DNA of 11,872 nucleotides from Myxococcales bacterium (GTDB taxonomy: Bacteria > Myxococcota_A > UBA9042 > JABWCM01 > BTVJ01), in NCBI GenBank assembly GCA_045863395.1, contig BTVJ01000141.1:1-11872 (forward strand), written 5' to 3'. A model generated the notes under the pieces. That model worked only from the letters and a program-made list of their open reading frames with translations. It ran no database searches and had not been told where the DNA came from. This document shows, piece by piece, positions 8 through 11,872 of the stretch (position 1 is its first letter; each line of letters begins with the position of its first letter). The position numbers and the translations under genes are program-made.

Positions 8-628
8 CTACTGGGCGCCCGCGCCACCCTCGGGAGCTGCGCCACCCTCGGGAGCTGCGCCACCCTCGGGAGCTGCGCCACCCTCGGGAGCCGCGCCACC
101 CTCGGGAGCTGCGCCACCCTCGGGAGCCGCGCCACCCTCGGGAGCCGCGCCACCCTCGGGAGCCGCGCCGGCCGCCGCGCCGGCCTTCTGAGCCTCCTCC
201 AGCGCCGCCTTCATCTGGGCCTGGATGATCGTCTGCATGCAGGTGCTCACCGCCGTCTGGTCGGCGGCGTTGGCCAGGCAGCCGCGCGCGTCCTCCGGCC
301 AGGTCTCGCACTGGGTCTTGAAGGCCGCCAGCTCCTCATCCGACGGGTCCTTCTCGCCCATTGCCTTGCCGATCTTCTTCATGTTGGCAATGACGCCGTC
401 GCACGACGCCCCGCCACCGGCCTTGGCCTCATCGGCCTTGGGCTCGTCCTTCTTGGCTTCGTCGGCCTTGGCCTCGTCCTTCTTGGCCTCGTCCTTCTTG
501 GCCTCGTCCTTCTTGGCCGTCGCCCCCGGCTTGTCCTTGCCGGCAGCCTCGTCCTTCTTGCACCCGGCGCCAGCGCCCACCGCCAGCACCAGGAGCCCCA
601 TCACCATTCCACGTACCAACAGCTTCAT
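8..628 (-). CDS. Small lipoprotein: signal peptide/lipobox, (KKDEA)n charged linker, 4-Cys helical domain, (AAPEGG)8 tail
   Basis: ATG at 628 with a strong SD (AAGGAGGA, 634-641 minus strand). MKLLVRG is followed by a hydrophobic stretch and AGAG-C-KK, consistent with a lipoprotein signal. The repeats are in frame and a TAG stop lies at 8-10. Confidence 0.88.
   Translation of the reverse strand: MKLLVRGMVMGLLVLAVGAGAGCKKDEAAGKDKPGATAKKDEAKKDEAKKDEAKADEAKKDEPKADEAKAGGGASCDGVIANMKKIGKAMGEKDPSDEELAAFKTQCETWPEDARGCLANAADQTAVSTCMQTIIQAQMKAALEEAQKAGAAAGAAPEGGAAPEGGAAPEGGAAPEGGAAPEGGAAPEGGAAPEGGAAPEGGAGAQ
21..169. repeat. 18-bp tandem repeat, 8 full copies plus 5 bp (GCGCCACCCTCGGGAGC[T/C]), encoding AAPEGG on the minus strand
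   Basis: Units start at 21, 39, 57, 75, 93, 111, 129 and 147. They differ only at the last base (T,T,T,C,T,C,C,C), a synonymous position. Confidence 0.97.
425..514. repeat. 15-bp tandem repeat, 6 units (consensus GGCCTCGTCCTTCTT), encoding K(K/A)DE(A/P)
   Basis: Three perfect copies at 470-514 and three variant copies at 425-469, plus one detached copy at 545-559. Confidence 0.93.
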
Positions 629-785: not shown

Positions 786-836
786 CGCAGGGTGCCCGCC
801 CGGGCAGCGCCTGGACCTCCACTGGCAGGGAGCCCC

Positions 837-1697
837 ATGACCCTCACGCTGCGTCGCCCTCGTTCAGCCGTGGCCCTCACGTGCCTCGCCCTGTACATGG
901 CCTGCACCGACGTCGTGACGACAGGCGGCCAGGACGGGGGCGGCACGTCGTCTCCCTATGACACCGGTCCTGCTGGGGGCGTCCCGGATGCGGGCACGAA
1001 GGACACGGGACCCGCCGGAGTTGCGGACGTCGGTTCGGCGGACACCGGCGCAGCCGACGCCGCGAGCAGCGACGCCGACCCGGACACCGCGGCAGTGCTC
1101 GATGTGCCGATGGGTCCGGACGTCTCCGACGACGCGGACACGCTCCCGACGACCGCCTGCGAGGACCTCGAGGCCGACTACGCCGCCGCCCTCACCCTCG
1201 CAAAGACCTGTACAGCCGACGCGGACTGTGCGCTCCGCCGCCCCACGGACCCGGCGGGCTGCACCTGCGATGCCTGGGTGGTGTCGGCGGCCACCCTGGA
1301 CGACATCGCGGACGACTACGCCCTGGCCTCTTGCGTCACCTGCGACCCGCCGGGGGCCTGCCCCGCCCTCGGGAACGCTCGTTGTATCGGGGGCCAGTGC
1401 GTTGCTTCCGCAACCCCGGTGAACTGCACGACCCTGGCCGACAAGTACAAGGGCGAGGTCAGCAAGGCCAAGGCCTGCACCACCTCCGAGGAGTGCCGCG
1501 TGCTCGTCGACAGCGTACTCACGTGCGGGTGCCCGGTGTACGTGAACGAGACGTATGACGCCACGCTGATGACGTCCCTCTCCAATCAGTACCACAGCGC
1601 GCAGTGTCCGCCCGGGGAGGGCTGCGCCGCCTGCGGCGAGCCGCTGGTCGGCGTCTGCACCGGCGGCAAGTGCGCGACGAAGACCAAGGCCCCGTGA
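837..1697 (+). CDS. Putative lipoprotein (286 aa) with an acidic D-x-G low-complexity linker and two tandem 10-Cys modules
   Basis: The start was re-assigned from the track's 225 to the in-frame ATG at 837, which has GGGAG just upstream. MTLTLRRPRSAVALTCLALYMA-C is signal-like with a non-canonical lipobox. It is followed by a DTG/DAG/DVG-rich linker and two homologous Cys-rich modules (1158-1400 and 1425-1673). Confidence 0.82.
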   Translation: MTLTLRRPRSAVALTCLALYMACTDVVTTGGQDGGGTSSPYDTGPAGGVPDAGTKDTGPAGVADVGSADTGAADAASSDADPDTAAVLDVPMGPDVSDDADTLPTTACEDLEADYAAALTLAKTCTADADCALRRPTDPAGCTCDAWVVSAATLDDIADDYALASCVTCDPPGACPALGNARCIGGQCVASATPVNCTTLADKYKGEVSKAKACTTSEECRVLVDSVLTCGCPVYVNETYDATLMTSLSNQYHSAQCPPGEGCAACGEPLVGVCTGGKCATKTKAP

Positions 1698-1703
1698 GCG
1701 CCC

Positions 1704-3212
1704 ATGAGCACGCCACAGACCCGCGTGGTGAGCGATATCGGCGCCTGCATGGTCGCCGCGTTTCGTGAAGCGCGCGCAGCGGTCGCGTTCCTGCGTTGTG
1801 ACGATGAGCAGGCCCGCCAGGAGGCGCTCGCGGCGCTGACCCGTCACCGCTCGACCGTGATCTGGCGTGTCGTGGACCTGGCCGGGAGCCCTGGCTCGCC
1901 CCAGCGGGCCCTCGCGGATGCCTCCCAGGGAGAGACCCCCACCATCGTCGTCGTCCGGGACGTCGACGCCGAGGTCATCCAGCGCCTCGCAGCCGAGCGC
2001 GACGCCTACGACCAGGCGCTCACCCGCGCCATCTTCTTCATCACCCCGAAGGACATGCGCACCTTCGCGCAGAAGTGCCCGGCCTTCTGGGAGCGGCGGG
2101 ACCTGTTCACCGCCTGGCCCATCGACGAGGAGCAGCGCGCTGCGGAGGCGCGCGCCCGGGTCATCGAGGCCGAGCGTCGCCCGCGGGAACGCCAGACGGC
2201 CTCGCGCGTGACCACGCCGGAACAGGCGACCGCCCTGTTCCAGAAGGCTCGCGGGGCCTTCTACACGTCGAGCGAGGGCGCCGAGAAGTCACTGATGGCC
2301 TCCATCGAGCCTCTCAAGGCCCACCACATGCTCGCCGAGATCGCGGAGACCTACGAGCTCCTGGGCGTCTTGACCGAGCGGCGCAACGACTGGCGCGCCG
2401 CCGAGGCCTGGTACGAGCAGGCGCTGGTCCAGTGGAAGGCGGTGGACGACGCCCGTGGAATGGGAAGCGTGCTCGGGCGCATCGGGTCCATCCGCTTCCG
2501 CCTCGATGACGCCGAGGGCGCGCGGCGCTACCTGACCCAGTCGCTCCAGCAGGAGGAGCGGGCCGGCGACGGGCGGCGCATCAGCGACGCGCTTCGCCGC
2601 CTCGCCATGGTCCGCGAGCGCGAGGGCGCGCTGAAGGACGCGGCCACGCTGTTCGACAGGGCGCTCAAGACGGTCGAGCCGCTCAACGACGACGCGCGCC
2701 TGTCCCACTGCCTCCAGCACCTCGGCCGCATGAAGGAGCGCCTCGGGCTGACCGACGACGCCCTCGCCCTCTACGAGCGCTCCTACCGCCTGAAGCTCGC
2801 CCTGGGAGACCACGCGGGCATGGCGACGTCCCTGCACCAGATGGGCAACGTCTACTTCCAGAAAGCCCAGTACGAGCAGGCGGTGCGATGCTACCGGCAG
2901 GCCATCGGGCGGGAGCACAAGGCCGGCGACGAGCGAGGCATGGCGTCCACCCTCGTCCAGCTCGGACTCATGCTGGAGCAGCGCTTCGACTACGAGGAGG
3001 GGCTCCGGTGCCTGCTGCGCGCAGTCCCCCTCCTGCGGAAGCTGCGGTCCGGCGTGCTCGCAGAGGTAGAGACCCACATCGCGAAGTGTCGAGGGATGGT
3101 CCCCGACCACGTGATCCAGTACATCGAGGAGGACGTCGCGCGGGGGGCGCGCGACGCCACGGCCGCGGAGCAGGCGCTGATCGCCAACGACGCCCAGCTT
3201 CGATTTGTCTGA
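1704..3212 (+). CDS. Tetratricopeptide-repeat protein with an N-terminal alpha/beta domain, probably a degenerate P-loop NTPase
   Basis: Several ~40-aa TPR units of the 'GDxxGMAxxLxQxG...A...Y..AL' type, e.g. GDHAGMATSLHQMGNVYFQKAQYEQAVRCYRQAI and GDERGMASTLVQLG. There is no signal peptide. It starts 6 nt after the upstream stop. Confidence 0.88.
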   Translation: MSTPQTRVVSDIGACMVAAFREARAAVAFLRCDDEQARQEALAALTRHRSTVIWRVVDLAGSPGSPQRALADASQGETPTIVVVRDVDAEVIQRLAAERDAYDQALTRAIFFITPKDMRTFAQKCPAFWERRDLFTAWPIDEEQRAAEARARVIEAERRPRERQTASRVTTPEQATALFQKARGAFYTSSEGAEKSLMASIEPLKAHHMLAEIAETYELLGVLTERRNDWRAAEAWYEQALVQWKAVDDARGMGSVLGRIGSIRFRLDDAEGARRYLTQSLQQEERAGDGRRISDALRRLAMVREREGALKDAATLFDRALKTVEPLNDDARLSHCLQHLGRMKERLGLTDDALALYERSYRLKLALGDHAGMATSLHQMGNVYFQKAQYEQAVRCYRQAIGREHKAGDERGMASTLVQLGLMLEQRFDYEEGLRCLLRAVPLLRKLRSGVLAEVETHIAKCRGMVPDHVIQYIEEDVARGARDATAAEQALIANDAQLRFV

Positions 3213-6108
3213 GCTGTCGCCAGGATCTGCCCGGTGGCGCTTTGCCGCGTCGCTGGCCCTCGCCTGCGCATTGTGGTCGTCCGTCGTGCGGGCCGGGTCG
3301 GACCCCGACCAGGTCTGGGCGAGCATCGCGACCCCCCACTTCGACGTCCACTATCACGACGGGGGCCGGGACGCGGCGCTGCGTGCTGCGGCCATCGCGG
3401 AGGAGGCCCTGGCCACCCTGGCGCCGGTGCTGGGCTGGACCCCCCGCGAGCGGATCCAGGTCGTGCTGCGTGACGAGTCGGATGGCGCCAACGGCTTTGC
3501 CAGCGCGGCCGGCTACAACCGCCTGACGCTGCTCGCGACCCCGCCGGAGGCCGACGCCGAGCTCGGAAACTACGACGACTGGCTCCACCTGCTGATCACC
3601 CACGAGCTGACTCACGTGCTGCACCTCGACAACGTCGGAGGCGCCCCGGCGGTGATCAACGACGTGTTCGGGAAGGTCCTGCTTCCGAACCAGGCGACGC
3701 CCAACTGGTTCATCGAGGGGCTCGCCACCTGGGCCGAGAGCGCCTTCACCCCCGCCGGCAGGGTGGGCGACGCCTGGTTCGAGATGTACATCCGCACGTC
3801 GGTCCTCGCGGGCGAGCCCCTCGACCTCTCCGAGATGACGGCCCCGCCCGCCCGCCTGCCCCGGGCCACCTCCTGGTACGCGTATGGGGGAGCCTTCGTC
3901 ACCTTCATCGTGCGTGAGAAGGGGGTCGACGCCCTCCGGGAGATGCTCCGACTGTACGGGCGCCGGCTCATCCCCTACGCCCTCAACTCCGTGGCCCGGG
4001 AGGCCCTCGGCGAGAGCATGGTCGACCTGTACGAGCGATGGATGGCCGAGCTTCGGGAGCAGTACGCTGCGTTTGAGCGTGCTCGGCGCGCGCAGGGCCT
4101 GCTGGGGGGAGAGCGAGTCACGTCGTCGGGCGAGTTCAACGGCAACATCGCGTTTCGCCCTGGGACCAACCAGCTCGCCTACGTGGTGTCCGACGGCCGC
4201 TCCCGGAGCCACATGCGCCTGCGCGACCTGGACACCGGGAAGGAGACCCGCATCCTCACCTGCTACGGGGGCTGCGGCCGCCCGACGTTCTCCCCGGATG
4301 GCCAGACCCTCTACTACTCCCGCGCCGACATCACCAAGACCGTCTACCGGTTCCGCGACCTCGCGCGGCTCGATCTGGCCACGGGGCACGTGGAGCGCGT
4401 CACGCGGGGCCGACGCCTGCGTGACCCGGACCTGGCGCCGGATGGCCGCACCCTGGCGTTCGTCACGACGAGCTGGGGCCTCACCGAGCTGCGCACCATG
4501 GACCTGGAGACCGGGGAGGAGCGCCTGCTGCTCGACGGGAGCGGACACCGGCAGCCGTCGACCCCCCGGTGGTCGCCGGACGGTCGCGGGCTGGCGCTCT
4601 CCATGCAGGTGGAAGGCGTGCGCGACCTGTGGTGGCTCGACGTGGAGACCGGCCAGCTTCGGCGCCTGACGACGGATCTGCCGCGCGCCGTGAACCCCAG
4701 CTTCACACCCGACGGCGCCTTCATCCTCTATGCGTCCAGCGACGAGGCCGTGTGGGATCTCTTCGCGGTGCGCCTCGCGGACGGCCAGCGCTTCCGGGTC
4801 ACGCGGGTGCTGACCGGCGCTCTCCAGCCCGAGGCGGACCCGCGTGGGCGGTCCATCTGGTTTCGGAGCTGGTCGGTGGACGGCTGGGACCTCGCGCGCA
4901 TGGACCTGGACCCGGCCGCCTGGGAGCCTCTGGATGACGGCGGGGTCGACGCGGACGCCCTCGCCGCGCGGCGGTACGGGGCCCCCGAGCCCCAAGTCGA
5001 GGAGGAGGGGGCCTACGACCCCTCGTGGACCCTGTGGCCGCGGTCGTGGCTCCCGGACATCACGTTCCTGAGCGGTGACGGGGTGACCCTCGGGCTCTCC
5101 CTTGGCGGCGCGGACGTCGTCGGGCACCACGCCTGGTCCCTGTCCGCCCAGTGGTCCCTCGACGACGTCCGGCCGGCGGTCGTCGCCGCCTACAGCAACG
5201 AGCGCTTCCTCCCGAGCATCGGGGTCTCCGGCGCGTGGCTCCGTCACGACAAGCTGGCCTTCGACGGCGCCGACTACGTGATCTACGAAGAGGAGCTCCT
5301 GCTCGCGTCCCTGGGTCTCGGCCTGCCGTTCCCGGGCCTCGACGAGTCCCTGTCCCTGTCCTTCCGCTTCGACGTCCAGCACGCGCGGCCCGTCGAGATG
5401 CCTCCCTCCCGCGCGGAGCCCGACGGCGTGCGGCACCGCCTCCCAAGCGCCCGCACCGACCTGGGAATCACCACCGCGTGGTCCTACGACAACTCGGAGA
5501 CCTACACCCTCTCCGTGGTGCCCGAGCTGGGGCGCCGCCTGTCCTCGTCCTTCACCCTGCGGCCGCCCCTGGCCGACGGCGACCCCATGCCTTGGGCCCT
5601 GCGCTGGTCCTGGACCGAGTACCTCCCCGCGCTCTGGGTGGATCACCACGTGTGGGCGCTGCGGGTGCAGGGCGGGGTCTCCGGTGGTGCGGGGCGCCAG
5701 AGCTTCAGCCTGGGGGGCATCCCGGAGCGGGACCTGGTCGACGACATCCTCAATCAGCAGGGCATCGGAGGCGCACAGCTCCGCGGGTTCGCGCCCGGTG
5801 CGCTGAGCGGGGATCAGTTCCACCTCCTCAACGGCGAGTACGTCTTCCCGATCGCCTACGTCCACCGGGGCCTCGGCACCCTCCCGCTGTACCTGGGGCG
5901 CGTCTATGGGCTCGTGTTCGCCGACGTGGGGACGGCGACCCGCGGCGCGCTGACGGACGCGCTCTGGAGCGCCGGCGTGGGGGCCGAGGTGCGGGCGACG
6001 TTCGACCTGTTCTATGGGAGCGCTCTCACCCTGCGGCTCGGCTTCGGGCAGGGAGTGACCGAGGGCGGGGAGAGCCAGGTGTACTTCGTCTCGGGCGGCG
6101 GTTTCTGA
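3205..6108 (+). CDS. Omp85/BamA-superfamily outer-membrane protein with an N-terminal gluzincin-type (HExxH) peptidase domain and a TolB/PD40-like beta-propeller (WD40-Omp85 type)
   Basis: Signal peptide; HELTH (3601-3615) followed by PNWFIEGLA (3700-3726). PD40-like repeats include PTFSPDGQTLYY, PDLAPDGRTLAF, PRWSPDGRGLAL and PSFTPDGAFILY. The C-terminal amphipathic strands carry the Omp85 loop-6 motif LRGF (5779-5790) and FADVG (5917-5931), ending in YFVSGGGF. The TTG start overlaps the upstream gene by 8 bp. Confidence 0.88.
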   Translation: MSELSPGSARWRFAASLALACALWSSVVRAGSDPDQVWASIATPHFDVHYHDGGRDAALRAAAIAEEALATLAPVLGWTPRERIQVVLRDESDGANGFASAAGYNRLTLLATPPEADAELGNYDDWLHLLITHELTHVLHLDNVGGAPAVINDVFGKVLLPNQATPNWFIEGLATWAESAFTPAGRVGDAWFEMYIRTSVLAGEPLDLSEMTAPPARLPRATSWYAYGGAFVTFIVREKGVDALREMLRLYGRRLIPYALNSVAREALGESMVDLYERWMAELREQYAAFERARRAQGLLGGERVTSSGEFNGNIAFRPGTNQLAYVVSDGRSRSHMRLRDLDTGKETRILTCYGGCGRPTFSPDGQTLYYSRADITKTVYRFRDLARLDLATGHVERVTRGRRLRDPDLAPDGRTLAFVTTSWGLTELRTMDLETGEERLLLDGSGHRQPSTPRWSPDGRGLALSMQVEGVRDLWWLDVETGQLRRLTTDLPRAVNPSFTPDGAFILYASSDEAVWDLFAVRLADGQRFRVTRVLTGALQPEADPRGRSIWFRSWSVDGWDLARMDLDPAAWEPLDDGGVDADALAARRYGAPEPQVEEEGAYDPSWTLWPRSWLPDITFLSGDGVTLGLSLGGADVVGHHAWSLSAQWSLDDVRPAVVAAYSNERFLPSIGVSGAWLRHDKLAFDGADYVIYEEELLLASLGLGLPFPGLDESLSLSFRFDVQHARPVEMPPSRAEPDGVRHRLPSARTDLGITTAWSYDNSETYTLSVVPELGRRLSSSFTLRPPLADGDPMPWALRWSWTEYLPALWVDHHVWALRVQGGVSGGAGRQSFSLGGIPERDLVDDILNQQGIGGAQLRGFAPGALSGDQFHLLNGEYVFPIAYVHRGLGTLPLYLGRVYGLVFADVGTATRGALTDALWSAGVGAEVRATFDLFYGSALTLRLGFGQGVTEGGESQVYFVSGGGF

Positions 6109-6167
6109 GCCGGGGGGCGCCCGCTCGCCGTCGTGCATCAAATGCTTGCGACAGGCCGGGTTCGCGG

Positions 6168-6197
6168 TTGACACCGCTTCCGGCGCTGCGTTACGAT
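6168..6197 (+). promoter_or_regulatory. sigma70-type promoter upstream of the PEGA gene
   Basis: A perfect TTGACA (6168-6173), an 18-bp spacer and TACGAT (6192-6197), in the 170-bp intergenic gap. Confidence 0.7.
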
Positions 6198-6265
6198 GCC
6201 GCGCAATTTGCCGGGATTTCCCGAGCTTGCGTGCAGCGAGCCGGGGCGCGCAGAGGACAGCAGGC

Positions 6266-6270
6266 GGAGG
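6266..6270 (+). promoter_or_regulatory. Shine-Dalgarno site for the PEGA gene
   Basis: GGAGG 8 nt before the ATG at 6279. Confidence 0.8.
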
Positions 6271-6278
6271 CCGTAACC

Positions 6279-7223
6279 ATGAGAGCACAGAGGAGGCGCA
6301 TCGTGGCGCTGGCCGCCCTTGCGCTGGCGCTGGCCGCGGGCGGGAGCGCGCTGGCGGCGTCCAAGATCGTGGTGTTGAAGGTCTCCGGCGATGCGCTGAG
6401 CGAGGCCGAGCGGGGCGCCCTGACCGACGCCCTGCGCAAGCAGGCGGAGGCGCGGCCCGCCTACCAGGCGATGCCGACCCCCCAGGCCGACCTCATCGAC
6501 CTCATGTTCGACGCGGAGTGCGTCGAGGCGGACAACGCCTGCCTGAAGGACATCGGCAAGTCCCTCGGGGCGGACGCGGTGCTCTTCGGCGAGGTGGCGG
6601 CCAAGGGCGGCGGTTACGAGCTCCGCGTCCGCGTCGTCGACGTGAAGACCGGGAAGCAGCTCAAGGAGTCGAGCAAGGCCGCGCCCGCGGCCTCGGGGCT
6701 CGCCGGCGTCGTCCCCGACCTCGCGACGGCGGCCCTCGGTGCCGCCCCCGCAGTCGCTGCGAAGCCCGTCCTGGTTGCGCTCACGGTCAAGACGGCGCCG
6801 GAGGGGGCGGACGTGTCGGTCAACGGGCAGCGCGTCGGCACCACCCCGCAGAGCTTCGAGGGCAAGCCGGGCGCATACACGGTCCGCATCACGAAGGAGG
6901 GCTTCCAGGAGGTCATCCGCAAGGTCGACCTGAAAGAGGGTGCGCCGGTGACGCTGGAGCTGACCCTCGAGAAGGTCCCCGAGACGCCCGTCGTGGTCAC
7001 CCCGCCCGTCACCGAGACCCCGCCCGTCGTGACGGAGGGCCCCGAGTTCTACGAGACCTGGTGGTTCTGGACCATCGTCGGCGCCGCCGCGGCCGGCACG
7101 ACCGTCGGGATCCTCGCGGGGACCGGCGCCTTCGACGCGGAGCCGGCGCCCGTCGGCAACGCGACCCTCCTCGTCGGGCAGCGCCCCGACCAGGACTTCC
7201 TGCTCCACCTCCAGAGGAAGTGA
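6279..7223 (+). CDS. PEGA-domain protein (314 aa): Sec signal, alpha/beta (TolB-N/CsgG-like) domain, PEGA domain, Pro/Thr/Val linker, C-terminal TM helix
   Basis: The start was re-assigned from the track's 5151 to the ATG at 6279, which has an SD. Signal peptide MRAQRRRIVALAALALALAAGGSALA. The PEGA-like segment is LTVKTAPEGADVSVNGQRVGTTP...PGAYTVRITKEGF...TLELTLEK (6780-6974). The membrane anchor is FYETWWFWTIVGAAAAGTTVGILAG. Confidence 0.87.
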   Translation: MRAQRRRIVALAALALALAAGGSALAASKIVVLKVSGDALSEAERGALTDALRKQAEARPAYQAMPTPQADLIDLMFDAECVEADNACLKDIGKSLGADAVLFGEVAAKGGGYELRVRVVDVKTGKQLKESSKAAPAASGLAGVVPDLATAALGAAPAVAAKPVLVALTVKTAPEGADVSVNGQRVGTTPQSFEGKPGAYTVRITKEGFQEVIRKVDLKEGAPVTLELTLEKVPETPVVVTPPVTETPPVVTEGPEFYETWWFWTIVGAAAAGTTVGILAGTGAFDAEPAPVGNATLLVGQRPDQDFLLHLQRK

Positions 7224-7229
7224 CCTGCG

Positions 7230-9458
7230 ATGAAGCTCCCGATCACGAGGATGGTGAGTGTCTCCGCGGGGCTCGCCGCGGTTCTCTCGGGCTGCGCCTC
7301 GGCGCCGGACGACGGTGCGGCGCAGAGCGGGCTCGTCCAAGTCCGGTTCGCGCTTGCGGCGGACTCCGCGAGCGCGGGCTGCCCGAGCGGCCTCAAGTTC
7401 CCGCAGGTGAAGAGCCTGCGGCTCCGCCTGTTCAGCGGCACCCCGGAGTCGGTGGACGCCGCCGCGCCGCTGTTCGACACGAGCGACCCGGCCATCGCCG
7501 CGGACGGCTGCCTCTCCTTCGTCCAGTGCACCAACGGCGCCGTGCGCATCGACGCCCCGGGGGCATCGCAGGCGGCGCGCATCGAGGAGTGCAAGGCGGC
7601 GGGCGGCACGACCGTCGAGGCGCTGGAGATCAACGTCACGGACATCGAGCCCAACGGCAACGTGACCGCCTGGCTGGAGGCCTACTCCGACGAGGGCTGC
7701 CAGGACAAGGTCTTCGTCGGCCTCCGCGGAGGCATCGACATCCAGGCCGGTGAGGACGGGCGGGGCTACTTCATCCAGCCCCTGTGCGTCGGCCACTTCA
7801 CGGAGCTGCCGGACCCGGGGCAGGAGGACGCGGGCTTCATCCGCAACGTCGCGGGGACGACCTGCACGACAGATTGCGAGTGCATCGACGCCTTCAGCGA
7901 CACCCTCAAGATCAAGTGCTCCGACGCGCAGAAGGGCAAGCCCTCCCTGCCCGGGGCCCCGCTCCAGTGCAAGAGCGGCAAGTGCACCACCGGGCACGCC
8001 TTCGAGGACATCCTGACCACCACGTGCACCGACGACGTGCCGTGCACGGCGCTCTACCCGTCGGCGGCCTGCGGGGGTGACGGCTTCTGCCGGGTGACCT
8101 CCTACTATCCGCTCGACATGAAGCACGGGCGGGCCTTCCACACAGCGACGCCCCTGCCCGACGGCCGGGTGCTGCTGGTCGGCGGCCTCGCGAAGAAGGT
8201 GACGGGTGGCGACAAGGGGACGTTCGTGGCCCTGGACGACGCCATCGAGGTCTACGATCCGCGCATTGGCACCTTCTCCGAGATGACGGTGTCCGCGGCG
8301 GAGCAGGGCGCGCTCCAAGGGGACGAGGGGCGACGCGCCTTCCACACGGCGACTCCGCTCCGCGGCGGCAAGTTCCTGGCCGTGTCCGGTGGTGTCCAGG
8401 AGGCGTCCTTGCGCGTCGCGGGCTCGGGCGCGGGCCGGCAGCTCCAGATCGCCACGCCCGCGACGACCGTCGCCGGCGAGGGCAGCAACATGCTCTCCAA
8501 CCTCTTCCTGGTGGACACCGGCGCCCGCATCGGTCGCGCGAAGGCGCTGGGCGTGGACTCCGGGGGCAAGCGCACACCCCAGCCCTTCGCCATGCACACG
8601 TCGTCGGCGGTCCTGTCGCACTCGACGGAGGAGCTGTTCCTCATCGGCGGCATCGCCCCCGACGGCACCCCCATCACCCAGTGCGACAACAAGAGCTCGT
8701 CGCCCTACGCGGACGTCGCCACCAACTGCCAGGTTGGCGATCCCGCCGAGGCGAGCTGCAAGGTCAACCCCTGTGTGCTCCACGCGGCCCGTGCCGCGGC
8801 GTCGGGTGTGTGCTTCGCTGCCGACGACAGCGGCGTCTGCTCCGCCTACGCGGTGATCGGCGGCGCCCTGTCCGACAAGTCCCCGGTGGGCGAGGTCTTC
8901 GCGACGCCCCAAGGCGGCGGCGGGTCCGGTTCGTTCGCTGCCCTGGGGGCCAAGGGCTCCGACGAGCTGCGCCTGGCCAAGTTCGGTGCGACGGTGAGCG
9001 ACCCGGCGACCGGCAGGGCATGGTGGTTCGGCGGCGCGGTGTCAACGACCTTCGACGCGCCCGCGAACGTCGCCACCTATGAGCTGAAGCTGACGGAGAC
9101 GGGCGGCCAGCAGAGCCTGGAGGCCAGCCCGGCGAGCACCACGGCCCTCCAGAGCGCGTCGCTGGCGCTGCGCACCCTCCACGAGGCCACGCGCCTCGAG
9201 AGCGGTGTCATCTTGGTGACCGGCGGGCTCGACTCCAAGACCCAGAGCACGGCGTCGGTGCTGCTCTTCGACCCGGCGGCCAACGCCTACAAGGCGTCGG
9301 ACCTGACCATGGAGCGCTCGCGGTTCGGGCACAGGGCGACCCGCATCGAGTCGGGCCTGCTGAAGGGCGCGGTGCTCGTGACCGGGGGCATGTCCCTCGG
9401 CGCGAACGCGACAGAGCCCGAGCTGGTCCCGACGGCCGAGATCTACATCCCGGAGTGA
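7230..9458 (+). CDS. Kelch-repeat beta-propeller lipoprotein with an N-terminal beta-rich domain and a Cys-rich insert
   Basis: Canonical lipobox LSG-C at residue 22. About seven Kelch-like blades ending in GG: RAFHTATPLPDGRVLLVGG, RAFHTATPLRGGKFLAVSGG, FAMHTSS..LFLIGG, RAAASG..YAVIGG, KFGATV..WWFGG, RTLHEATRLESGVILVTGG and RFGHRATRI..VLVTGG. The protein ends in AEIYIPE. Confidence 0.87.
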   Translation: MKLPITRMVSVSAGLAAVLSGCASAPDDGAAQSGLVQVRFALAADSASAGCPSGLKFPQVKSLRLRLFSGTPESVDAAAPLFDTSDPAIAADGCLSFVQCTNGAVRIDAPGASQAARIEECKAAGGTTVEALEINVTDIEPNGNVTAWLEAYSDEGCQDKVFVGLRGGIDIQAGEDGRGYFIQPLCVGHFTELPDPGQEDAGFIRNVAGTTCTTDCECIDAFSDTLKIKCSDAQKGKPSLPGAPLQCKSGKCTTGHAFEDILTTTCTDDVPCTALYPSAACGGDGFCRVTSYYPLDMKHGRAFHTATPLPDGRVLLVGGLAKKVTGGDKGTFVALDDAIEVYDPRIGTFSEMTVSAAEQGALQGDEGRRAFHTATPLRGGKFLAVSGGVQEASLRVAGSGAGRQLQIATPATTVAGEGSNMLSNLFLVDTGARIGRAKALGVDSGGKRTPQPFAMHTSSAVLSHSTEELFLIGGIAPDGTPITQCDNKSSSPYADVATNCQVGDPAEASCKVNPCVLHAARAAASGVCFAADDSGVCSAYAVIGGALSDKSPVGEVFATPQGGGGSGSFAALGAKGSDELRLAKFGATVSDPATGRAWWFGGAVSTTFDAPANVATYELKLTETGGQQSLEASPASTTALQSASLALRTLHEATRLESGVILVTGGLDSKTQSTASVLLFDPAANAYKASDLTMERSRFGHRATRIESGLLKGAVLVTGGMSLGANATEPELVPTAEIYIPE

Positions 9459-11578
9459 GCTCCGAGCGGCCGCCCCTCCCTCCGCTCCCCCTGGTCGCAG
9501 GAGTCGCCTCCTTCCTGACGTTGATGGTCGCCGCACCGGGCGACGTGTGGCTGCGTGACGCCGGTCAGCTCGGGGCCGCGTCCTGGTCCCTCGGCGTGGC
9601 ACACCCGACGGGTTTTCCCCTGGTCATGGTTGCAGGGCGGCTCGCCAGCCTGCTCCCCCTCGGGAGCCTCGCGTGGCGCATGGGGCTCGTCAGCGCCGCG
9701 TGCGCCGCGTGCGCCATCGGGCTCGCCGTGAGCGTCGCGCTGGCGCTCCTCCCCCGGCAGGTCGGGTGGGTTGCGCGTGCGGTGGTCGCGGGCGCCGTGG
9801 CCGCCGTGCTCCTCGCAAGCCCGACCTGGTGGCTGCACGCCACTGTGCTCGAGGTCTACGCCCCCACCGCCCTGGTGATTGCCGGGGGGGTGCGCCTGCT
9901 GGTCGCGCACGTCGAGGCGCCATCGCGGCGGACGGCGGCGCTCCTCGGCCTCCTGGCCGGGCTCTCCGTCGGAGTCCACGTCACCGGCCCCCTGTGCCTC
10001 GCTGTCGTCTGGGTCGCCCTCCTCGCCGGGCGTCCGCCACGGGAGGCGGGGAGGGTGCTGCTCGTCGCCGTCCCCCTGGCGCTGGCGGGCACCCTGGTGC
10101 TCGCCTACCTCCCGGCGGCGGCCGCCCACGACCCCTGGCGCAACTGGGGAGACCCGTCCACGCTGGCCCGCATCATCGATCACGCGACCGGGGCGAGCAT
10201 CCGCGCGGCCTTCGCTGGCACCATCGGCTCCACCCACCCCCTGGTCCTCGAGGCAAACCTGCTCTCGTACGGCGAGCAGCTCGCGGACGGGGTGGGGGCA
10301 GCCCTGGTCCTGGCCGCCGTCGGGGCCGTGTGGCTCGTCGTGGCCGGGCGCCGCGCGGTCCTCGGCGCGCTCCTGGGCATCTGGCTCGTGGACGCGGCCT
10401 TCACGGTCCTGGTCAACCCCATGGGCATCGTGGATCGGCAGACCGGGGTCCCTTCCCTGGTCGTCGCCGCCGTGCTGGCGGGCGTGGGCGTGGGCGCGGT
10501 GGTGCGGGGGGCGTGGCGCCTGGTGCCCCGGGTTCGCGAGGCGCTCCCGGCCTTGCTGGCCGGCGCCTCCGTTGTCGCCGCCCTCTGGTGGGCCGAGGTT
10601 CCGGAGGGCCTGCGCCCGCAGCCCGGCTGGGCCGAGCTGTGGGGCCGCGCGGCGCTTGCCCAGGTGCCCCCGGGGGGCCTGGTCGCGACGGCCACCGACG
10701 ACACGTCGGGGGTGCTGACCTTCCTCCTCGGGGTGGAGGGCGCCCGCCCCGACGTGGCGCACCTGGAGCTGGCCCACCTCTATGATCCGGGCGCCATCGG
10801 GCACTGGCGCCGGCTGTACGGCGCGGTAGTCCCCGACGAAGCGCTGGACCTCGCCCGCTCGGCGGACCTCCGCTCCACTGAGGTGCAGCGGGGGGTCCTC
10901 GGCGCGATCGTGGCCGAGGCCGAGCGCCGCGGGACCCCCGTGCTGTGGGAGCCCTCCGAGCGCGACCTGGACGTGGTGGTGGAGCCGAGGCTCCGCGGCG
11001 CGTGGCCTCTGTGGCCGCTCGTGCGCGACGGCGACAAGCTCCCCTACCCGGTCACCGACGCCCAGTCGGCCCCGCTGCGCTGGGAGGCGCTGGCGACGCC
11101 CGACGCCGCGGCGCGGCGCCTGCTGGCCCTGACGGCGCGCAGCGCCGCGTTGATTGAGGTCGGGCGGGGCCGCCCCGTGCTCGCCACCGCCCTGCTCGCA
11201 GGGGCGGCGACGCAGGCACCCGACGAGCCCAAGGTGCTCTCGAACCTGCTCACCCTGCGGGCCCGGGCCGGGGCGCTCGACGAGGCCCTGTCCCTGGCGC
11301 GCCACCTGGTGAGGGTCGCTCCGGCGTATGCGGCAGGACGCCTGGACCTCGCGGGCCTCCTCGTCGCGACGGGCAGCCCCGACGAGGCCGAGGAGCACGC
11401 CGAGGCGGGCCTCTCCCTGGCGGCGGGTTCCCGCCAGAGGGCACGGGCGCTGGTGCTCCTGGGGCGCGTTGCGCTGGCCCGAGGCGACGCGACGGAGGCG
11501 GCTCGCAACGCTCGCCTGGCTCTGGAGGCCGCTCCCGGTTCCGAGGAGGCGGAGGCGCTGCTGCGGGAGGCGCGCTGA
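9455..11578 (+). CDS. DUF2723/TMEM260-like multi-pass membrane glycosyltransferase (GT-C fold) with C-terminal TPRs
   Basis: GTGA start/stop overlap with the Kelch gene. The motif RDAGQLGAASWSLGVAHPTGFPL resembles the DUF2723 'D.GE...LG..HPPGYP'. LEVYAP and NWGDPST motifs are also present. Many hydrophobic helices precede a soluble region and C-terminal TPR-like helices (APDEPKVLSNL.., APAYAAGRLDLA.., ALEAAPGSEEA). Confidence 0.8.
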   Translation: MSSERPPLPPLPLVAGVASFLTLMVAAPGDVWLRDAGQLGAASWSLGVAHPTGFPLVMVAGRLASLLPLGSLAWRMGLVSAACAACAIGLAVSVALALLPRQVGWVARAVVAGAVAAVLLASPTWWLHATVLEVYAPTALVIAGGVRLLVAHVEAPSRRTAALLGLLAGLSVGVHVTGPLCLAVVWVALLAGRPPREAGRVLLVAVPLALAGTLVLAYLPAAAAHDPWRNWGDPSTLARIIDHATGASIRAAFAGTIGSTHPLVLEANLLSYGEQLADGVGAALVLAAVGAVWLVVAGRRAVLGALLGIWLVDAAFTVLVNPMGIVDRQTGVPSLVVAAVLAGVGVGAVVRGAWRLVPRVREALPALLAGASVVAALWWAEVPEGLRPQPGWAELWGRAALAQVPPGGLVATATDDTSGVLTFLLGVEGARPDVAHLELAHLYDPGAIGHWRRLYGAVVPDEALDLARSADLRSTEVQRGVLGAIVAEAERRGTPVLWEPSERDLDVVVEPRLRGAWPLWPLVRDGDKLPYPVTDAQSAPLRWEALATPDAAARRLLALTARSAALIEVGRGRPVLATALLAGAATQAPDEPKVLSNLLTLRARAGALDEALSLARHLVRVAPAYAAGRLDLAGLLVATGSPDEAEEHAEAGLSLAAGSRQRARALVLLGRVALARGDATEAARNARLALEAAPGSEEAEALLREAR

Positions 11579-11596
11579 CGGGCTGGGCAGCCTTCC

Positions 11597-11734
11597 GAGC
11601 ACGGCGTAGGCGACGCAGAGGAAGTTGCCGGTGCCGCAGGCCGGGTCGAGCACGCGCACGTCGTGCAGGCGCCGCAGGAATGGGAGGAGCATCTTCTGCG
11701 CGGCCTCGTTCGCCTTCGTCTCGGCGTTACGCAG
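11597..11734 (-). pseudogene. Remnant of an N6-adenine DNA methyltransferase (MmeI/type IIL-like RM enzyme), SAM-binding motif I only
   Basis: The minus-strand frame reads ...AAQKMLLPFLRRLHDVRVLDPACGTGNFLCVAYAVL (DPACGTG at 11647-11627). It then runs straight into the antisense of the glycosyltransferase gene with no NPPY/F motif IV. The upstream in-frame residues do not look like an MTase. Confidence 0.72.
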
Positions 11735-11872
11735 GCCGCCGCCCAGGGCGACGCAGGTGTCATGGGCGCACGCCGTCAACGCGGGAACGAGGTCTCGCCG
11801 GGCCGCAAGCACGGATCCAGCGGTGGGCGGATGGGCAGGTCGTTTCGGCACCCGCAGACGCCTCCGCTGCCG

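Follow-up and report, generated by a model that had tools for sequence, protein, structure and literature searches.

Do six genes packed closely together on one strand of a myxobacterial contig form a single system for surface proteins, or is their grouping incidental? The window that we analyzed is the entire 11,872-nt contig BTVJ01000141.1 of a Myxococcales bacterium (G000:C141 of the 8.77-Mb source genome, G000; 70.9% GC). From the letters alone, an earlier reading (the original prediction) had described six co-directional open reading frames (ORFs) in two tightly coupled triplets and proposed that their products export, process, and glycosylate surface proteins, while allowing that the grouping could be incidental. 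We re-derived the six ORFs exactly, from 837-1697 through 9455-11578, together with the junctions between them, which in order measure 6, -8, 170, 6, and -4 nt (the last a GTGA overlap). All six + strand ORFs have a GC content at third codon positions (GC3) of 0.87-0.96, the bias of real genes, and Pfam agrees with the domain labels first given to them (TPR; PD40 plus Omp85; PEGA; Kelch; TMEM260-like PF11028 plus TPR). Our answer is that the second triplet, which encodes a PEGA protein, a Kelch lipoprotein, and a DUF2723 glycosyltransferase, is a three-gene envelope operon that is real, undescribed, and built from known families. Its features are:

6168..6197, + strand: sigma70-type promoter-like site TTGACA-18-TACGAT, the predicted promoter of the three-gene operon (shuffles, orthologues)
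6279..7223, + strand: gene 4, PEGA anchor protein, 314 aa, module core (Pfam, alignment, synteny)
about 7059-7121, + strand: WWFWT-led hydrophobic helix of the PEGA protein (alignment)
about 7155-7178, + strand: PEGA tail, conserved beta-strand-like motif (alignment)
7230..9458, + strand: gene 5, Kelch lipoprotein, 742 aa, lipobox C22, module core (Pfam, alignment, model)
9455..11578, + strand: gene 6, TMEM260-like (DUF2723/PF11028) GT-C glycosyltransferase with a TPR tail, 707 aa (Pfam, profile)

We searched 60 relatives (two of the same order and 58 of the same class, from 15 families) with each protein, counting one best place per genome and omitting secondary paralogue matches. All 50 genomes with an Omp85 match, all 50 with Kelch, and all 26 with the TPR protein entered the comparison, as did 57 of 58 for PEGA (one weak partial match was dropped) and 51 of 53 for DUF2723 (two TPR-only matches were dropped). 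PEGA lies directly 5′ of Kelch in 44 of the 49 genomes having both (13 families), or 44 of 45 if both are on the same contig. Kelch lies directly 5′ of DUF2723 in 41 of 45 genomes (nine families), or 41 of 42 on the same contig. This gene order is kept at mostly 25-35% protein identity, the relatives not being independent of each other. Scanning the collection with a DUF2723 alignment gave 80 loci, overlapping with the 60 genomes and so not an independent sample; 32 have PEGA and Kelch upstream, and five of those also have Omp85. That PEGA-Kelch-DUF2723 is a real conserved unit we hold with high confidence, and it is far surer than any mechanism that we propose below. The caution that the grouping could be incidental does not apply to the second triplet, which is found class-wide.

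Among the genomes searched, the Kelch protein is confined to the class. In a sample of the phylum, the Kelch profile at E 1e-25 matched 18 of the 19 genomes from the class and none of the 91 from other classes. Five further genomes gave weak Kelch matches in two cases, and all five contain WD40-Omp85, the family of gene 3. In another class, none of 25 DUF2723 loci has PEGA, Kelch, or Omp85 within about 1.5 kb. Searching 1.84 billion representatives with a profile of the Kelch N-domain gave 112 clusters at E 1e-10; since most of these are 560-770 aa long, the N-domain is one compact family.

The second triplet also has its own promoter-like site. TTGACA-18-TACGAT, a near-consensus sigma70-type sequence, is the sole such site of the window (one found versus a mean of 0.0 in shuffled sequence). 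We defined the site as TTGACA-16/18-TAnnnT with a score of at least 9 of 12, no more than 300 nt upstream of PEGA, and scored 36 of 37 aligned PEGA orthologues, omitting one at a contig start. The site precedes PEGA in 27 of the 36, versus 1.3 expected from shuffles, including 6 of the 11 genomes where Omp85 adjoins PEGA. We saw no terminator-like site within the 170-bp gap. In sludge metatranscriptomes, contigs 6155-9977 and 6216-9854, from two runs of one study, span both second-triplet junctions, and contigs 802-4546 and 873-3426 span first-triplet junctions; such contigs show only that the sequences occur in RNA libraries, reveal neither the strand nor whether one transcript spans the genes, and may in part reflect DNA. 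No RNA contig spans 6053-6154 in any of four runs, a hole that proves nothing and that we did not use as evidence. We infer two transcription units, the second (genes 4-6) under a housekeeping promoter. The original prediction had treated the locus as one grouping and named independent transcription as an outcome that would speak against it; the conserved site of the second triplet points to just that.

The first triplet consists of the following:

837..1697, + strand: gene 1, putative lipoprotein with two tandem 10-Cys repeats, lineage-specific, outside the module (no Pfam family, no orthologue)
1704..3212, + strand: gene 2, TPR protein, 502 aa, no signal peptide seen, outside the module (Pfam TPR)
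3205..6108, + strand: gene 3, WD40-Omp85 with gluzincin motif, TolB-like propeller, and 16-strand Omp85 barrel, no POTRA (Pfam, model)
3601-3615 (HExxH) and 3715 (E171), + strand: gluzincin codons in gene 3 (alignment)

These genes do not stay together. For gene 1, which matched no Pfam family, we found no orthologue, only weak partial matches in 4 of the 60 genomes, none near the locus. In none of 20 genomes does the TPR gene adjoin Omp85, and only 2 of 23 genomes, both of the same order, have it no more than 8 kb 5′ of PEGA. Omp85 is directly 5′ of PEGA in only 10 of 49 (seven families). The neighborhood comparison suggested by the original prediction thus divides the locus, genes 4-6 keeping together across the class and genes 1-3 not, and genes 1 and 2 are passengers outside the module. 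It is scarcely credible to us that the six genes together make up a single system for export, processing, and glycosylation, or, in a variant, that the Kelch protein is a copper radical oxidase acting on a glycan made by the transferase. The tight junctions and the RNA-library contigs across the first triplet favor the six-gene form; the missing gene 1 orthologue and the absence of TPR-Omp85 neighbors weigh against it.

The oxidase variant is raised by the fold of the Kelch protein. Its model (predicted local distance difference test score, pLDDT, 84.1; predicted template-modeling score, pTM, 0.87) has a beta-rich N-domain, a Cys-rich insert, and a Kelch propeller, and its top fold matches are AA5 oxidases (Z 28.6, root-mean-square deviation [rmsd] 3.1, 339 residues aligned; range Z 23-29). 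AA5 copper radical oxidases use a Cys-Tyr cofactor, Tyr and His copper ligands, and a C-terminal His-bearing domain. In the Kelch family, no Tyr or His is invariant among 39 sequences, and no further domain follows the propeller; we rejected a galactose oxidase-type enzyme on these grounds. The Cys22 column is invariant in all 39 sequences, in a lipobox-like context in most, and the protein is a lipoprotein precursor with predicted lipidation. Neither PDB sequences nor Pfam gave a significant match to the N-domain profile. Because propellers dominated the whole-chain fold searches, this domain and the Omp85 peptidase domain are barely probed structurally.

The PEGA protein begins like a signal peptide and continues with a CsgG/LpoB-like alpha/beta domain in which C81 and C88 are invariant, the PEGA domain, a Pro-rich linker, the WWFWT-led helix of small residues, which is the predicted membrane anchor, and a tail of about 30 aa with a conserved strand-like motif. 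The source genome has a second pair of this kind at G000:C8:69066-72162 (L241:5067-8163), where a gene for a 570-aa Kelch lipoprotein is followed by one for a 459-aa PEGA protein that carries the same WWFWT helix and a terminal beta-strand. The second Kelch lipoprotein was found in 50 of the 60 relatives and, in the best 19 of these 50, a PEGA/WFW-helix partner lies directly 3′ in every locus. As there are two independent conserved pairings, a physical partnership is likely, and we predict that PEGA and Kelch proteins bind each other. More generally, PEGA genes in G000 are followed by lipoprotein genes in 6 of 23 cases versus 240 of 2042 (p 0.047), a weak signal from a crude caller.

About a dozen secreted PEGA proteins of G000 (e.g., on C25, C29, C59, and C62) also have a C-terminal hydrophobic helix, followed by an acidic linker, a hairpin-like stretch, and a terminal Phe, and for some a lipoprotein gene follows. 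Such helix-ending PEGA proteins possibly serve as oligomeric outer-membrane anchors. In two genomes of one family, a gene for a CPBP-family (myxosortase-like) protease lies just 5′ of PEGA (L058:12515-13972 and L059:11685-12521).

The DUF2723 protein was first described as TMEM260-like, and this description holds up well. PF11028 scores 71 bits (cut-off 24.2), Pfam places TPR at residues 604-696, and a 25-sequence profile matches human TMEM260 (PDB 9rql) at E 6.7e-48 over chain residues 29-482. Residues D35, H50, E133, and D415, each invariant in all 25 orthologues, align with human D52, H67, E144, and D441 (pairwise at low identity, positions read from the alignment). According to the available text on the human enzyme, D441 serves as catalytic base and D52 and H67 as donor-binding residues, all three being essential, and the TPR part grips an extended peptide (bioRxiv 10.64898/2026.03.17.711096). 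Since the donor residues and catalytic base are kept in 25 of 25 sequences, the gene 6 product is likely an active GT-C glycosyltransferase dependent on a lipid-linked sugar; its sugar, lipid carrier, and acceptor can be proposed only by analogy.

The enzyme was not found in every genome. PF11028 was not found in any of five tested genomes that keep PEGA-Kelch, one of which is a single contig that is 97% complete, so the enzyme appears dispensable in some lineages. As the pair persists where the enzyme was not found and a second pair is conserved, we regard PEGA-Kelch as the core. A protein of about 200 aa with a weak cadherin-like match is encoded 3′ of Kelch where DUF2723 is missing, and 3′ of DUF2723 in two other genomes (L048:6518-7108, L049:7391-8035, L042:13696-14295, and L044:5766-6347).

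What might the three genes do together? In the reading that we tentatively prefer, to which we give slightly less than an even chance, they would be a housekeeping operon for an anchor-lipoprotein envelope complex that has its own maturation glycosyltransferase. The TMEM260-like enzyme, in the inner membrane, would move a sugar from a lipid carrier to Ser or Thr residues of newly exported proteins, its most likely acceptors being its operon neighbors, the PEGA anchor and the Kelch lipoprotein. By analogy with human TMEM260, D35 and H50 would hold the polyprenyl-phosphate sugar, D415 would act as the base, and the TPR part would grip the extended chain before it folds. The anchor and the Kelch protein would be a bound envelope pair and the core of the complex, probably joined through the C-terminal strand of the anchor, with the enzyme as an accessory maturation step. 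The WD40-Omp85 peptidase would be a separately transcribed neighbor with an ancient link to the operon.

Several observations weigh against this reading. The human donor-loop residues R264 and Y267 correspond to G246 and I249, and the R355 position is variable, so the donor chemistry may differ; R250 (24 of 25 sequences) and Q329 are conserved near the unmatched positions, and R250 may act as a substitute. No donor-synthase gene is present in the operon. PEGA and Kelch orthologues have no invariant extracytoplasmic Ser or Thr: the best Kelch columns reach 60-79%, and the 89% Thr of PEGA sits inside the hydrophobic helix. Ser/Thr columns of both proteins are mostly retained in genomes lacking the enzyme. 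Only Kelch 702 and 704 clearly differ (21-22 of 32 sequences versus 1 of 7), and four of those seven enzyme-less sequences are from one family and position 704 lies within an ordinary Kelch repeat motif. If the PEGA helix were an ordinary inner-membrane stop-transfer segment, the tail would be cytoplasmic and separated from the lipoprotein. Just past the helix, a 12-residue stretch carries a net negative charge in 25 of 37 orthologues and a net positive one in 8; such an acidic stretch fits poorly with a cytoplasmic tail and is no proof of another topology. The hydrophobicity of the helix (median +1.7 on a crude scale, versus -1.2 to +6.5 for the transferase helices) does not discriminate between inner and outer membrane.

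Sequons did not identify an acceptor either. The Bacteroidota-type D-(S/T)-x sequon is not enriched in predicted lipoproteins (observed/expected 0.75 in 563, versus 0.82 in 1799 predicted cytoplasmic proteins), and neither the PEGA nor the Kelch neighbor matches a TMEM260-sequon-like pattern. G000 has 27 IPT/TIG matches, some of which, on C1, C81, and C82, carry TMEM260-like sequons. Since it also has a second DUF2723 paralogue (G000:C59:4606-6516), other clients exist, a further point against the neighbors as the acceptors. This paralogue overlaps two small genes, presumably QueD-type synthases.

These IPT/TIG proteins suggest instead a general enzyme for exported beta-sandwich proteins, such as IPT/TIG surface proteins, that shares only a promoter with an unrelated PEGA-Kelch device. 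The persistence of PEGA-Kelch without the enzyme and the 25 other-class DUF2723 loci without PEGA or Kelch nearby are in keeping with it, and human TMEM260 acts on IPT domains, as the available text of its discovery paper states (PMC10214176). On the other side, TIG domains are not lost together with the enzyme, being at least as numerous in five of five genomes lacking it (12-139 matches) as in five of five having it (11-27). The GTGA overlap and the 41 of 45 adjacency also argue for a closer tie. Such tight gene coupling exceeds the usual need for shared expression. We consider a general enzyme rather unlikely, and continue to prefer the operon neighbors as acceptors.

Does gene 3 belong with the operon? 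Its model (pLDDT 87.9, pTM 0.87) has a helical peptidase region, a TolB-like propeller (Z 27.5 versus TolB), and a 16-strand barrel (Z 21.5, rmsd 4.6, 311 residues aligned versus Deinococcus radiodurans BamA), with no POTRA. PF01103 scores 33.7 bits (cut-off 24). By architecture, the product belongs to the WD40-Omp85 subfamily, catalogued as 'WD40-like' by Heinz and Lithgow in 2014, without a function in the available passages of that paper (PMC4104836). All 29 orthologues have H133, E134, H137, and E171, and gene 3 keeps an intact gluzincin metallopeptidase motif (HExxH plus a downstream Glu) with predicted activity. The description as a non-BamA Omp85 is borne out in that the peptidase region and propeller take the place of a POTRA array. 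G000 has five other Omp85 matches, the best (E 2.7e-66) on C29.

A role as a dedicated partner, as first proposed, fares less well. Since Omp85 is present where the Kelch family was not found, its dedication to Kelch or PEGA cargo is unlikely. In a quick tree of 33 Omp85 sequences (topology only; two long branches join), the genomes in which Omp85 adjoins PEGA are spread over three separate parts, a pattern compatible with an ancestral neighborhood lost by the larger families. An old linkage between Omp85 and the operon is likely. One could extend it to a four-gene system, in which the WD40-Omp85 inserts or surfaces PEGA and Kelch, its zinc peptidase trims or degrades them, and the glycosyltransferase acts first. 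In its favor, Omp85 adjoins PEGA in G000 and ten other genomes of seven further families, spread over the three tree parts, as an ancestral linkage would suggest; a pair of genomes from another family have Omp85 within 10 kb of the triplet, and the peptidase motif is invariant. Non-adjacency in 39 of 49 genomes, the promoter-like site between the genes, and Omp85 in all five genomes with at most weak Kelch matches, which argues that it is not dedicated to Kelch cargo, make a four-gene system improbable.

In several families, an extracytoplasmic function (ECF) sigma factor gene and a zf-HC2 anti-sigma-like gene lie directly 5′ of WD40-Omp85 (L048:12914-14539, L042:4203-5815, and L046:13991-15345). 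In L047 only an anti-sigma-like gene does (L047:13437-14141), and L044 and L045 have sigma/anti-sigma genes nearby. A sigma/anti-sigma pair of this kind is a possible envelope-stress regulator of Omp85.

The PEGA tail invites a bolder idea, modeled on type V pili. The lipid-proximal first strand of the lipoprotein would be cleaved off, perhaps by the Omp85 peptidase, with the C-terminal strand of the anchor taking its place, resulting in a glycosylated Kelch adhesin on a membrane stalk. In both anchor families, the helix and a flexible linker are followed by an amphipathic G-x-h-x-h-x-h strand (G in 33 of 37), at the extreme C terminus in the second family, that resembles the first strand of the lipoprotein. 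The acidic stretch after the helix, unlike a cytoplasmic tail, is consistent with this idea, and Atlas neighbors of the Kelch N-domain include FimA/Mfa2 clusters, at a template-modeling (TM) score of 0.37, below the bar for naming. The strand pattern is generic, however, and the Kelch strands compared were chosen by that same pattern. Many orthologues have a very short loop behind the first strand, and it lacks a conserved basic site; there is a propeller instead of a pilin C-terminal domain, and the Omp85 linkage is loose. We give strand exchange a very slim chance. A small chance, in our estimate, attaches to a related new route to surface Kelch adhesins: the Trp-rich PEGA helix would sit in the outer membrane and give its C-terminal strand to the lipoprotein N-domain (each genome conserving two pairs of this kind), a dedicated TMEM260-type enzyme would glycosylate the pair before folding, and the WD40-Omp85 peptidase would insert and process it. 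If true, this outer-membrane strand-donation route would provide the first client for a bacterial TMEM260 and for WD40-Omp85.

The remaining features lie at the edges of the locus. The first lipoprotein had been labeled 10-Cys, which holds for one repeat; the whole protein contains 22 Cys residues, of which the putative lipobox C23 and one other belong to the signal region and the rest to two tandem 10-Cys units. At 8-628 (- strand) is a divergent putative lipoprotein gene encoding Lys/Glu/Ala repeats. An 18-nt tandem repeat lies at about 18-170, and in a same-order genome (G001) a likely orthologue of this lipoprotein gene adjoins the TPR gene. At 11578-11872 (- strand), a gene fragment converges on the DUF2723 stop; we take its motif to be DNA methyltransferase-like. 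Elsewhere in the source genome, G000:C155:619-843 is an 88%-identical copy of DUF2723 residues 533-607 among other short or fragmentary genes. This copy and the fragment suggest a mobile-element insertion or a strain variant.

In the literature that we searched, which covers few subscription papers, we found neither the PEGA-Kelch-DUF2723 operon nor the anchor-Kelch pairing, no paper characterizing a bacterial TMEM260 homologue, none on WD40-Omp85 function, and no report linking WD40-Omp85 with PEGA-Kelch-DUF2723 (eight families). The available text of the TMEM260 discovery paper mentions bacterial homologues only as distant (PMC10214176). An enzyme that keeps its full catalytic core, in an operon conserved across a whole class, offers two candidate clients and makes the question of bacterial TMEM260 targets testable; a mutation of Asp415, matching human D441A, would supply an inactive control. 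With two anchor-Kelch pairs conserved, an envelope structure that defines the class and is unstudied seems to be indicated. Most genomes with the operon appear to be metagenome-assembled, and the class is mostly uncultured.

How does the locus compare with known systems? With AA5 oxidases such as galactose oxidase and Streptomyces GlxA, the Kelch protein shares the propeller fold and a gene beside a glycosyltransferase. GlxA is paired with the glycosyltransferase CslA. The Kelch protein differs in having no conserved Tyr/His copper ligands or C-terminal domain, and its neighbor is a GT-C enzyme rather than a processive GT2. Like the WD40-Omp85 subfamily, gene 3 has a TolB-like propeller in place of POTRA before a 16-strand barrel; the available passages on that subfamily make no mention of an N-terminal gluzincin domain such as that of gene 3, which the supplementary tables may list (PMC4104836). 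Type V pili, whose assembly mechanism is described for the Fim/Mfa proteins of Bacteroidia, share with the Kelch locus, as far as the available text goes, a lipoprotein with an N-terminal beta-sandwich (predicted in the Kelch protein) and a first strand after the lipid anchor, a partner whose C-terminal strand is free, and a protease gene nearby; the Kelch locus differs in having no conserved cleavage site and in that a PEGA protein anchored by its helix, rather than a pilin, would donate the strand (PMC13655056). Human TMEM260 (CAZy GT117; PDB 9RQL/9RQM/9RQN) and the bacterial enzyme share the GT-C membrane part, a Rossmann-like part, a TPR tail, and a similar length. Unlike its human counterpart, the bacterial enzyme does not keep R264, Y267, and R355 at the aligned positions, and its gene is fixed in an operon beside those for the PEGA anchor and the Kelch lipoprotein.

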